Part shown: piece after piece, positions 22,073 through 25,000 of the stretch
How the letters are laid out: each line of letters starts with the position of its first letter
Numbering within the stretch: position 1 is the first letter of the stretch
From: Chitinophaga pinensis
Lineage (GTDB): Bacteria; Verrucomicrobiota; Verrucomicrobiia; Limisphaerales; JAEYXS01
Length of the DNA stretch: 64,000 bases
Reading direction: 5' to 3'
Assembly: GCA_943367715.1 (NCBI GenBank)
Contig: CALRJY020000029.1
Location: 41-64,040 of the forward strand
Made by a program: the position numbers and the translations under genes
The notes under the pieces: model-generated
What the model was told of the DNA's origin: nothing
Database searches by the model: none
The model's input: the letters and a program-made list of their open reading frames with translations, nothing else

Positions 22073-25000
22073 TTAGAGGGCCCCGCCGGACATGAAGCTG
22101 AGGAAACCGCTGGTGAAAGCCGCTTGGTCATCGACGTCATTCAGATCCAGCGAAACTCCGGCGGGCGCGGCGACAGCGAGGGACTGGGCAGCCGCAATGG
22201 AAGCCTTGATCTCGGGCTGCTTGGCGAGCTGAACGGCGGCGATGGTGATCGTGGCCACCGCCAAGGCGGCCACCAGCGCAGGTGCCACGACAGCCATCCC
22301 AATTCCAGAGACCGCGCCCGCGCCGGATGTCGTCGTTGCGGTAATTGCCGCTCCTATTGTGGTGCTGGCCGTGAACCCCAATGAAGCTCCCGACAATGCT
22401 CCACCCGTCGCTACCGCTGAAGTAATCGCACTCACAGGCACGGCGCACATGAGCGCTCCGACCGTAGCTCCGGCACCGAGACTGGTGCCGATGACGATGG
22501 CCGCGTCCTTGGCATAGCTGACTTTTACCTGATGCGCGAAGTTGGGCACGAGGTTCATGTCACCCGGGTTGACTATTTGGGGAATGCTCGGGTCCGGCCC
22601 GGCCAGCCATTCGTCGTAGAGTCTCACGACCTCCTGGGCTTGGTCGATTTTGACTTGTTTCGCCTTGATGGTGGCCTCCTGGATGATGAAGGCCAATTCG
22701 GGAGGCTGCTGGTCGGCCGGCAGCTTGGCATACTTGATTACCACTTCGCTCAACCTGCCCATCAGCATCGTTTGCCGGGTGGGATCGTCGTTAAACCCGC
22801 TGAGAAAACTGCTTATGCCGTCCTTGAAGTAGAGGTCCAGGGTCACCGTGTCACCGGCGGAAATAAGCTGGGCCATCAATGTCTGCGCGGCTTGCTCCAG
22901 ATACGGCTGCATGGCTGGGGCCTTGAACGCCTCCGGCATCTTGAACGGCGTCGCCGGCGGCGTGGTGGTGACCTCCAAATGGGCCTTGGATTCCGCGATC
23001 GCCTCCATCTCCCGCGCCGCCAAGGTGGCGGCATTGGGGATGATGACTTCCAGCCTGCCTCCGCTCACGTAGGTCACCGCGTAGTTGGGATTTTCGTTAT
23101 AACCGGAAACGGTGATCGTCTTCCGGCTCACCAACGTGCCACCGGTGACAAAGTCGACGGGAATCAAAAACGTCGTGTCGGGATCCAGCACCACCGGCGG
23201 CACGGGCGCGGGGTCCTTGGCGAAAATAAGGAACTTCGTGGCGAGCCCGCTGAGGCCGCCCGCGGTGTTGGGTGCCTTGAGTATGTTTCCGTCGGCATCC
23301 ACCTCCATGGCGGAAAGGTTGGCGGCCGCAAACGGATTCGCGATCGGGTGGTCCGTCAACGCGGAAACCGGCCGGACTTCCGGACGGAACGACGCTGCAT
23401 CATCCACCGTGCCATACGTCAGGTTCGGCAACACATCGGCCATCGTAAGACCCGTCGGCAGATTGCCGACTACCGCGCTGAAACCCGGGACCGTCGCGCC
23501 TTCATCCACCTTAATGCTGTCCACGTAGATAGTGAGATTGCGCGGTACAATCGTGGCCAAGTTTCCGCGCAGGGTGATGTCGTAATTGTGCGAGTCCAAA
23601 ATCCGGGGGAACAACGGATACGCCCCGATGTCTGCGGCCAGCGCCGGCGTCTTGTCGATCCAACTGATGACATCCGCCAGGGTGTCGAAACTCGCCAGGC
23701 CCATGCCGCCGATCGTGGTCACGACTTCCGGGTTGGCATCGTAGTAGAAGCGGGTGAAGCCTTGGACATCGAGGCTGATGGGACGAGGATTCACCGTCAG
23801 GGTGCCGGGCTGGAGCGTGACCGCGTAATTGGGGTTCGGGACCGTCGGTCCCGTGATTGCGATCGGATAACCGCCCACAGTGGAGGTCAGCTCGGCCGTG
23901 GTCGAGACACCAACCCCGGCCAGCAAAGTCGCGGCGTTGTCGAACGAGGCCACGCCGGAACCCCCAACCGAATAGGAAAGCGAGGGATTGTTCTCCCCAA
24001 AAATCTTCGAGGCATCATTCCCGATGAGGGTGATTGGGCGGGGATTCACCCGCATGGTGCCGCTCACCAGGGTGATCTGGTAATTGGGGCTCTGGCTCGT
24101 GGCCAGGATGTCATACGTGCCGACGAGTTGTTGCAGCGATGCCTCGCTGTTGAGCGTCACGATGCTCGCAGGCGTCTCGCCAAACTTCAGGCCCACCACT
24201 GATTGCAGTGCAGTGGCCGGATTCGGGTCGCCATAGAAGCGGGTCGTGTTGGCGGCGGTCACGTTGAGCGGAGCGGGCAGGATGCGCAGGCTCCCCTCCA
24301 CTGAATTGACCTGATAATTCGGACTGATGCTGGTGGCGGTGAACGGATAGGAACCCACTCCCGATTGCAGCGTGGCAGAATTTCCGCGGCTGACGACGGA
24401 GGCAAACGTTTCACCGAACTTCAGGCCGGTGATCGTCTCGAACGCTGGCGTGGGATTCGCATCGCCATAAATGCGGTCCGCATTAAACAACCGCACGTTC
24501 AATTGCGCCGGGGTGATTTGCAGCGCGCCGGGAGTCACCGCGCTCAGGAAGTAATTCGGGTTGATGCCCGTGGCGGTGATGGGATACGAACCCACGCTGG
24601 ATTGCAACGTAGCGGAGTGGATGATCTGGACCGCCGTGTTCCCAGCTTCGCCGAACTTGAAGCCCGTGACCGTCAGCGGCGCGGTAGTGGGATTCGCGTC
24701 ACCATAGCCGCGGCTCGTGTTCCCTACGGTCACATTCAGCGGCGCCGGAAAGATCTGCAAGTTGCCGGGCGTGACGCTGTTGATCTGGTAGTTGGCGCTG
24801 TTACCCACGGCAGAAATGCTGTAGGTGCCCACGGGCGCTTGCGCCGTGGCGGAATGCGTGAGCGTGACCTGCGCGGCGGCGGTGTCGGAGAGCTTCAAAC
24901 CGGTGGCGCTTACCGATACGCCAGGATTCGCATCACCATAAAGCCGGGTGCCGTTGCCCACCGTTACATTGAGGATGGCCGGGAGAATTTGCAGGCTGCC

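Follow-up and report, generated by a model that had tools for sequence, protein, structure and literature searches.

How adhesins of two-partner secretion (TPS, type Vb secretion) stay attached to the cell that makes them is understood in few cases, namely the cysteine hook of CdrA, the disulphide loop of HMW1 and the prodomain of FhaB. HMW1 of Haemophilus influenzae is tethered by its extreme C-terminus at the periplasmic side of its TpsB transporter. In the CdrA/CdrB pair of Pseudomonas aeruginosa a cysteine hook holds the C-terminus of CdrA at the CdrB pore and the N-terminus constitutes the distal adhesive tip, and LapG cuts in the periplasm and sheds the adhesin (PMC13405001; PMC7616799). 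The prodomain of FhaB in Bordetella is a large C-terminal region that is kept in the periplasm during secretion (PMC4542190). CdrA is the one characterised TpsA protein with an MBG2-type repeat stalk, and such a stalk is also encoded by tpsA, the gene treated here, located together with the transporter gene tpsB in a 64,000-nucleotide stretch of contig CALRJY020000029.1 (assembly GCA_943367715.1, deposited as Chitinophaga pinensis and placed by GTDB in the Verrucomicrobiota), which in full length is called the window. The 2814-residue TpsA protein ends with a module of about 280 residues, which is more likely a device holding the fibre on its own cell than a toxin, and we see an even chance that it is an undescribed C-terminal anchoring or retention module with a membrane-embedded hairpin. 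The sequences themselves show its layout, its conservation in the family, its restriction to MBG-stalk proteins, its unusual hydrophobicity and the missing toxin hallmarks; insertion into a membrane, the choice of that membrane and the retention function are what we infer for it. C-terminal retention of TPS adhesins is already known from CdrA, HMW1 and FhaB, but the module itself appears to be undescribed.

A word-indexed search with the C-terminal region alone gave one relative beyond the query itself, for the window protein and for the distant family member P0009 alike, and the impression of a very rare domain was overturned by phmmer and then by local profile iteration. With phmmer, aa 2490–2814 matched eight proteins among 1.84 billion representative sequences, and the real matches are the C-termini of proteins with a TPS domain and MBG_2 repeats. 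Three short matches are pieces of tpsA genes, frameshifted or broken in P0007 and P0011 and cut by the contig end in P0005, and no orphan copy of the module was seen among the short matches of this search. Scans of genome contigs and metagenome contigs for related loci gave no match. A local hidden Markov model (HMM), seeded with an alignment of eight C-terminal sequences, was then run on about 125 TpsA relatives, including the best 120 relatives of the N-terminal 676 residues. It recovered 32 proteins in round one and converged on 72, in each of which the module is located at the extreme C-terminus. An HMM of the helical domain only found 58 proteins, all among the 72 and at 125–384 residues from the end, and one of the low-complexity block only found nine; the family is therefore no composition artefact. 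The module is present in 66 of 74 MBG-rich TpsA proteins, with a weaker version visible in at least three of the remaining eight, versus none of the 46 that are clearly non-MBG. Judged from these profile matches, an end-piece of about 280 residues is the rule among MBG-stalk TpsA proteins, and the module defines this CdrA-like class of TPS adhesins.

By the names of the sources the hosts belong to at least four phyla, with Verrucomicrobiota (Opitutus, Actomonas, Synoicihabitans, Coraliomargarita), Kiritimatiellota, Thermodesulfobacteriota, Gammaproteobacteria (Bowmanella, Panacagrimonas) and Betaproteobacteria (Rhodoferax, Pseudothauera), and they are mainly free-living bacteria of soil and water. 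The closest N-terminal relatives of the window TpsA are proteins from metagenome-assembled genomes of Verrucomicrobiota. Neither the module nor its hydrophobic hairpin nor its wide distribution is described in the libraries and literature searched. In several metagenome assemblies (loci L007/L008 and L009) tpsA is split by frameshifts just ahead of or within the module, giving "short proteins" in the databases, and the splits come from faulty assembly of GC-rich repeats or else mark genuine pseudogenes.

The C-terminus of the window protein consists of a confidently modelled helical domain, a 94-residue uncharged block and a 49-residue acidic tail, the same order as in the original prediction, which was made from the letters alone and put the block at about 95 residues. 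The helical domain carries the motifs QPYL..AA, LPADQQPPELA, YDEW and VPNFA.QVK and is preceded by Pro-rich linkers. The uncharged run (aa 2672–2765, window 22223–22504) is the longest in the protein, with 59 aa for the runner-up, and the sequence quoted in the original prediction corresponds to aa 2672–2764. It contains 27 Ala, 13 Gly, 13 Thr, 11 Val, 8 Ile, 8 Ser and 7 Leu. No DNA tandem repeat was found under the block and a tandem-repeat origin was rejected, as was a second copy of the C-terminal region in a search within the 64-kb window. The block had been described as rich in GxxxG/A-type spacing, but it holds 26 small-xxx-small pairs compared to 23.3 +/- 2.5 when the block is shuffled, and that impression is therefore one of composition only.

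Hydrophobicity was calculated as a crude Hessa-scale sum over 19-residue windows. By this sum aa 2741–2759 (MAVVAPALVAALAVATITI) at +0.4 kcal/mol is near the threshold of membrane insertion, aa 2673–2691 at +2.1 kcal/mol is marginal, and the Gly/Ser/Thr-rich middle of the block has +4.2 kcal/mol, with +3.9 kcal/mol for the core of the protein's own signal peptide. Segment 2 holds the most hydrophobic 19-mer of the entire protein, and only two stretches of the block are candidate membrane helices. Its length had been thought sufficient for three or four membrane helices; from its sequence the block is best described as two hydrophobic segments with a joining loop.

The same arrangement is seen in the family. 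The consensus starts with the helical domain, which has vPdF and an acidic stretch at its end, followed by a Gly/Ala-rich segment 1, a loop of 6–98 aa that in many members has an [IL]FP[FY] motif and K/R, a segment 2 of the form aagPaaiv..Av.v...RGIQV with an acidic run after it, and a tail whose end is amphipathic (..L...LM..G). Charged residues are missing from a run of about 75 profile columns, and two hydrophobic peaks are found in nearly all members, but the AlphaFold2 model of the window protein shows no confident hairpin. The 94 uncharged residues of the window protein are at the upper end of the family, for which the median is 40 aa. The best 19-mer has a median of 2.3 kcal/mol in module-bearing proteins, 5.2 kcal/mol when the last 300 residues of these proteins are left out and 4.25 kcal/mol in module-less TpsA proteins (module-bearing versus module-less, Mann-Whitney p=4e-11), and the module therefore provides the only membrane-grade segment in these passengers. 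Hydrophobicity in the family is "semi-transmembrane", akin to that of glycine-zipper hairpins and not uniformly strong. The original prediction called a membrane-inserting effector or anchor of this kind atypical for TPS cargo, which is right in so far as hydrophobic segments are rare in TpsA passengers, but the end-piece as such is usual in those with an MBG stalk.

The loops differ in several ways. The [IL]FP[FY] motif, often with K/R after it, is found for example in P0023, P0025, P0029 and P0076, and the window protein has a degenerate form (CAVPVS). Loop inserts of 80–100 aa, strongly acidic and Ala/Glu-rich, are present in P0068, P0049 and P0040; if the loop is cytoplasmic, these inserts would not have to be translocated.

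The remote-homology searches suggested with the original prediction matched no known anchoring, secretion or toxin family in Pfam, NCBIfam or the PDB. The C-terminal 325–415 residues have no Pfam match even at E<=10, and the module has none in NCBIfam or among PDB sequences, either as a single sequence or as a profile. Among 24 diverse family members compared with Pfam at E<=1 there is no Gly-zipper, colicin or recurrent match, and the colicin pore-forming profile is matched neither by the window C-terminus (Pfam, E<=10) nor by these relatives. The glycine-zipper-like pore that had been proposed finds no support in these scans or in the count of small-xxx-small pairs. No PEP-CTERM or GlyGly-CTERM sorting signal, which would put a short motif, one transmembrane helix and a basic cluster at the extreme end, is present in the C-terminal region, where the block is followed by the 49-residue acidic tail and NCBIfam gives no match. 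The AlphaFold2 model of the C-terminus, built on a four-sequence alignment, has helices at aa ~2529–2640 with a predicted local distance difference test (pLDDT) score of 75–95, and 64–78 in the acidic tail. Foldseek of two such models against the PDB gave nothing at E<1, a fold test that covers the helical domain only, the hairpin being modelled at pLDDT<30.

The hallmarks of CdiA-type toxins are missing. As noted in the original prediction there is no VENN motif: a scan for VENN or [VL][ED]NN found none anywhere in the TpsA protein, and the Pfam scan of it gave no PT-VENN or other pretoxin match and no FHA-1/FHA-2 repeats. The original prediction also reported no immunity gene, which agrees with the lack of a credible small open reading frame (ORF) after tpsB in the window and is likewise the case in nine related loci where a downstream gene can be seen. 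The eleven loci examined were L001, L002, L004–L006, L007/L008, L009, L010 and L011–L013; in L003 and L010 the sequence stops too early to identify the following gene. In the window and the nine loci tpsB lies directly after tpsA, the two genes overlapping by 4 nt at one extreme and lying 204 nt apart at the other, and no third conserved gene is located between or after the two; hence an immunity gene is absent in both the cdiBAI and the cdiAIB arrangement, and there is no dedicated accessory factor. Candidates for immunity genes after tpsB in L001, L002 and L005 were rejected, being mutually unrelated and none of them like a conserved small membrane immunity protein.

Divergence along the protein also differs from that of CdiA. 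With the closest relative, P0004, the window protein shares 82% identity in the helical domain and 71% in the tail; in the block identity falls to 43% and indels occur, although the composition is retained. This is how a membrane segment or a linker behaves and not a catalytic or receptor-binding toxin domain. Compared to P0008 the first 720 residues are about 75–79% identical but from the distal stalk to the C-terminus identity is about 42%, so that similarity drops inside the stalk and not at the boundary of the C-terminal region. The abrupt divergence of C-termini between otherwise similar proteins, a CdiA hallmark, was not found, and the region is homologous across the 72 proteins. A classical contact-dependent inhibition (CDI) toxin was ruled out on the absence of VENN, of abrupt divergence and of an immunity gene. 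The proteins P0008 and P0016 have a mosaic relation to the window protein, with 74–79% identity over the first ~720 residues and ~42% over the distal stalk and C-terminal module, which suggests recombination within the repeat stalk.

A membrane-active effector of a different kind, held in the periplasm by a secretion arrest like that of CdiA and FhaB, exported on contact and inserting its hairpin into the target as a pore or translocation device, is unlikely. The target would have to be a eukaryote or another cell type for which no immunity protein is needed, as for ShlA/ExlA, and the hosts are mainly free-living soil and water bacteria. The layout with amphipathic helices, a hydrophobic hairpin and a final helix recalls helical pore formers of the colicin- and Bcl-2-type folds, but no colicin, Gly-zipper or other toxin model is matched in the 24 family members and the helical domain is without a PDB fold match. 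TPS pore-forming toxins without immunity genes do exist (ExlA, PMC8472254), the C-terminal toxin region of EC93 CdiA is a predicted pore former (PMC5422565), and the conserved C-terminal domain of FhaB is reported to be translocated into host cells (10.1101/2025.06.17.660209). The module, however, shows no polymorphism, VENN or immunity gene, and goes strictly with an MBG stalk of the adhesin type, the C-terminus of which is cell-proximal in CdrA; furthermore, SecYEG would be expected to intercept a near-threshold segment on its way to TpsB. The original prediction had left the choice between effector and anchor open, and the anchor fits better since the module is conserved, tied to the stalk and placed at what in CdrA is the cell-proximal end.

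By the polarity of CdrA the end-piece of the window protein should be the cell-proximal end. This polarity favours an anchor, as do the conservation across the family, the confinement of the module to stalk-bearing proteins, the missing toxin hallmarks and the lateral release by SecYEG. SecYEG shifts sufficiently hydrophobic segments sideways into the membrane, acting as stop-transfer. The TpsA protein would be exported by Sec and threaded with its N-terminus first through TpsB, so that the stalk and the TPS head reach the cell exterior, and the C-terminal module would stay periplasmic, held back by a hydrophobic hairpin that inserts into one of the cell's own membranes. The candidates are the inner membrane, where SecYEG would bring about stop-transfer, and the outer membrane on its inner face, as for glycine-zipper lipoproteins with two transmembrane segments. 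The uncharged block would be the membrane-embedded part of a ~280-residue module comprising the helical domain, two segments with a variable loop and the acidic amphipathic tail. A hairpin places both flanks on the same periplasmic side, which fits with the flanks being the best conserved and confidently modelled parts, and the two should fold together next to the membrane. The module would thus serve as a fibre anchor or retention device, the counterpart of the CdrA cysteine hook.

Several observations weigh against such an anchor. Across the block the AlphaFold2 pLDDT is below 30, so the hairpin is without structural support. The best-segment values of the family range from -1.1 to +4.9 kcal/mol and are above +3 in about 30% of the members, and this unevenness makes an obligatory inner-membrane stop-transfer in all members doubtful. 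A positive-inside analysis points both ways: the short loops contain about 50 K/R to 19 D/E (215 to 325 in the flanks), yet the K+R density of the loops is not above that of the flanks. Compared by description, the module has neither the Cys pair nor a TAAG-like LapG site of the CdrA hook. The C-terminal domain of FhaB, conserved and held in the periplasm, is reportedly deliverable into target cells at a later stage (10.1101/2025.06.17.660209). The very low model confidence, the fast evolution of the block with its indels, the weakly hydrophobic segments in about 30% of the members and the long acidic inserts in some loops would also agree with a block that has no membrane role and is a flexible or self-associating low-complexity spacer in a soluble C-terminal domain, used for example in fibre-fibre association. 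We consider this very improbable, as segment 2 is conserved in position, framed by Pro and Arg-Gly-Ile-Gln-Val and rich in Val/Ile/Leu/Ala, it constitutes the hydrophobic extreme of these proteins, and charge is excluded over ~75 profile columns.

The module may also be a transient tether or prodomain, holding the giant protein at the inner membrane or serving as its periplasmic chaperone while TpsB takes up the N-terminus, and later removed by proteolysis to leave a mature fibre without it, as with the FhaB prodomain. The Pro-rich linkers ahead of the helical domain, the non-polar C-terminus of the tail and a conserved Gly-Pro inside segment 2 agree with this, since helix-destabilising residues are typical of the substrates of intramembrane proteases. 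The prodomain of FhaB, a large C-terminal periplasmic region, is removed in maturation (PMC4542190; 10.1101/2021.05.21.445233). No protease gene is conserved in the examined loci and no recognisable cleavage motif was found in the TpsA protein, which makes a prodomain distinctly unlikely; it overlaps with the anchor and differs from it only in the persistence of the module. For a lasting anchor with its hairpin integrated into the inner membrane as Sec exports the chain, the MBG-stalk TpsA might constitute a trans-envelope fibre, one chain that runs through the periplasm and TpsB to a tip tens of nm outside, which we regard as quite improbable. It might transmit signals of adhesion or mechanical load into the cell. 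Candidates for receiving them are the products of genes a short way upstream in this genome, a membrane Ser/Thr kinase with a periplasmic WD40 sensor and an ECF (extracytoplasmic function) sigma factor. Cleavage within the membrane at the Gly-Pro conserved in segment 2 might also set the fibre free.

Table 1. Features of tpsA, its product and tpsB in the window
Feature	Position	Strand	Evidence
tpsA, 2814 aa: signal peptide, TPS domain, neck, ~19–20 MBG_2 repeats, C-terminal module	22073..30517	minus	translation and domain scans
TPS secretion domain, aa 58–299	29621..30346	minus	Pfam PF05860 E=3e-30, TIGR01901
MBG_2 (YGX-type) repeat stalk, aa ~715–2330	23528..28375	minus	Pfam PF18676, 19 stretches
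Helical domain of the C-terminal module, conserved, aa ~2529–2668	22514..22933	minus	AlphaFold2 pLDDT 75–95, domain-only HMM
Hydrophobic segment 1, Gly/Ala-rich, marginally hydrophobic, aa ~2672–2702	22412..22504	minus	
Gly/Ser/Thr/Ala-rich loop, aa ~2703–2737	22307..22411	minus	length variable in the family
Hydrophobic segment 2, most hydrophobic stretch of the protein, aa ~2738–2765	22223..22306	minus	
Acidic tail, conserved, with amphipathic helix F..GF..FM.GGAL at its end, aa 2766–2814	22076..22222	minus	alignments, AlphaFold2
tpsB, ShlB/FhaC-type transporter, 585 aa counted from GTG	20313..22070	minus	Pfam ShlB, POTRA_2, POTRA

The original prediction placed the start of tpsB 2 nt after the stop of tpsA, which is correct for the GTG, located 2 nt past the TAA, but an ATG at 22046, 24 nt inside the GTG, is more likely the start and would be followed by a typical signal peptide (M-T-R-F-S-N-I-L-W-L-A-L-L-L-P-V-A-Q-L-S-A). 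The regulators encoded ahead of tpsA vary: the window and L001 have an ECF sigma factor and a WD40 Ser/Thr kinase, L002 and L011 a hybrid histidine kinase (Reg_prop/Y_Y_Y) with a GerE response regulator, and L004 and L012 a lone GerE regulator. The order sigma factor, WD40 Ser/Thr kinase, tpsA and tpsB recurs in a related organism, at positions 3530–17478 of L001, the metagenome contig with P0008. An ORF of 122 aa of the XRE/HTH_31 type (window 19576–19944, plus strand) converges on the end of tpsB, and in L001 an HTH gene and hipA are found in the equivalent place downstream of tpsB.

The TpsA proteins with an MBG stalk are the largest environmental class of type Vb adhesins, and in at least four phyla they carry an end-piece that is conserved, unannotated and different from the attachments known so far. 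If it is an anchor, it represents a new solution to surface retention and merits its own family model in the databases. An inner-membrane hairpin, if true, would mean that a single chain joins the cytoplasmic membrane to the cell exterior, an arrangement of which no description in two-partner secretion was found in the literature searched. The result also warns against annotating such C-termini as CDI toxins.

Among the known systems the likeness to the CdiA toxins lies in the C-terminal position on a TpsA protein. Insertion into the inner membrane has been predicted for the toxin region of EC93 (PMC5422565). Unlike these toxins the window end-piece has no VENN or pretoxin motif, no FHA-1/FHA-2 repeats and no immunity gene, and it is not polymorphic. 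For the pore-forming ShlA/ExlA, phmmer of the C-terminal region matched MBG-type proteins only, no search with a ShlA/ExlA reference sequence having been made. Lipoproteins of the SlyB/YfgH type (Rick_17kDa_Anti/Gly-zipper) are exported by Sec and insert in a membrane of their own cell as Gly-rich hairpins of two helices joined by a short basic loop, and the window module would have in common with them a Sec-exported hydrophobic hairpin of two segments rich in small residues. They are small proteins, whereas the putative hairpin of the window protein is embedded in a 2814-residue TPS passenger, has no HMM match (24 members), is Ala- and not Gly-rich without an excess of GxxxG, and has a much longer loop.

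FhaB is alike in having a large conserved C-terminal region on a TpsA protein and no immunity gene, but no sequence relation was detected, exhaustive phmmer of the C-terminal region matching MBG-type proteins only. Its shaft is beta-helical, compared to the MBG stalk here, and its prodomain is degraded or delivered; to our knowledge no hydrophobic hairpin is known in it. CdrA is similar in its TPS domain, MBG2-type repeat stalk, C-terminal end-piece and dedicated adjacent TpsB. The anchor of CdrA is a short cysteine hook of ~50 aa, released by LapG at a TAAG site, whereas the only cysteines in the whole window protein are Cys5 and Cys2691, leaving no C-terminal hook, and no [TAP]AA[GV] site occurs in aa 2490–2814. 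The end-pieces being compared by description, that of the window protein is ~280 aa long, has no Cys pair and joins its helical domain to an acidic tail through the putative hydrophobic hairpin. HMW1 holds a beta-helix shaft by a tether of a 20-residue disulphide loop, and in the window protein the corresponding place is taken by a hydrophobic module.

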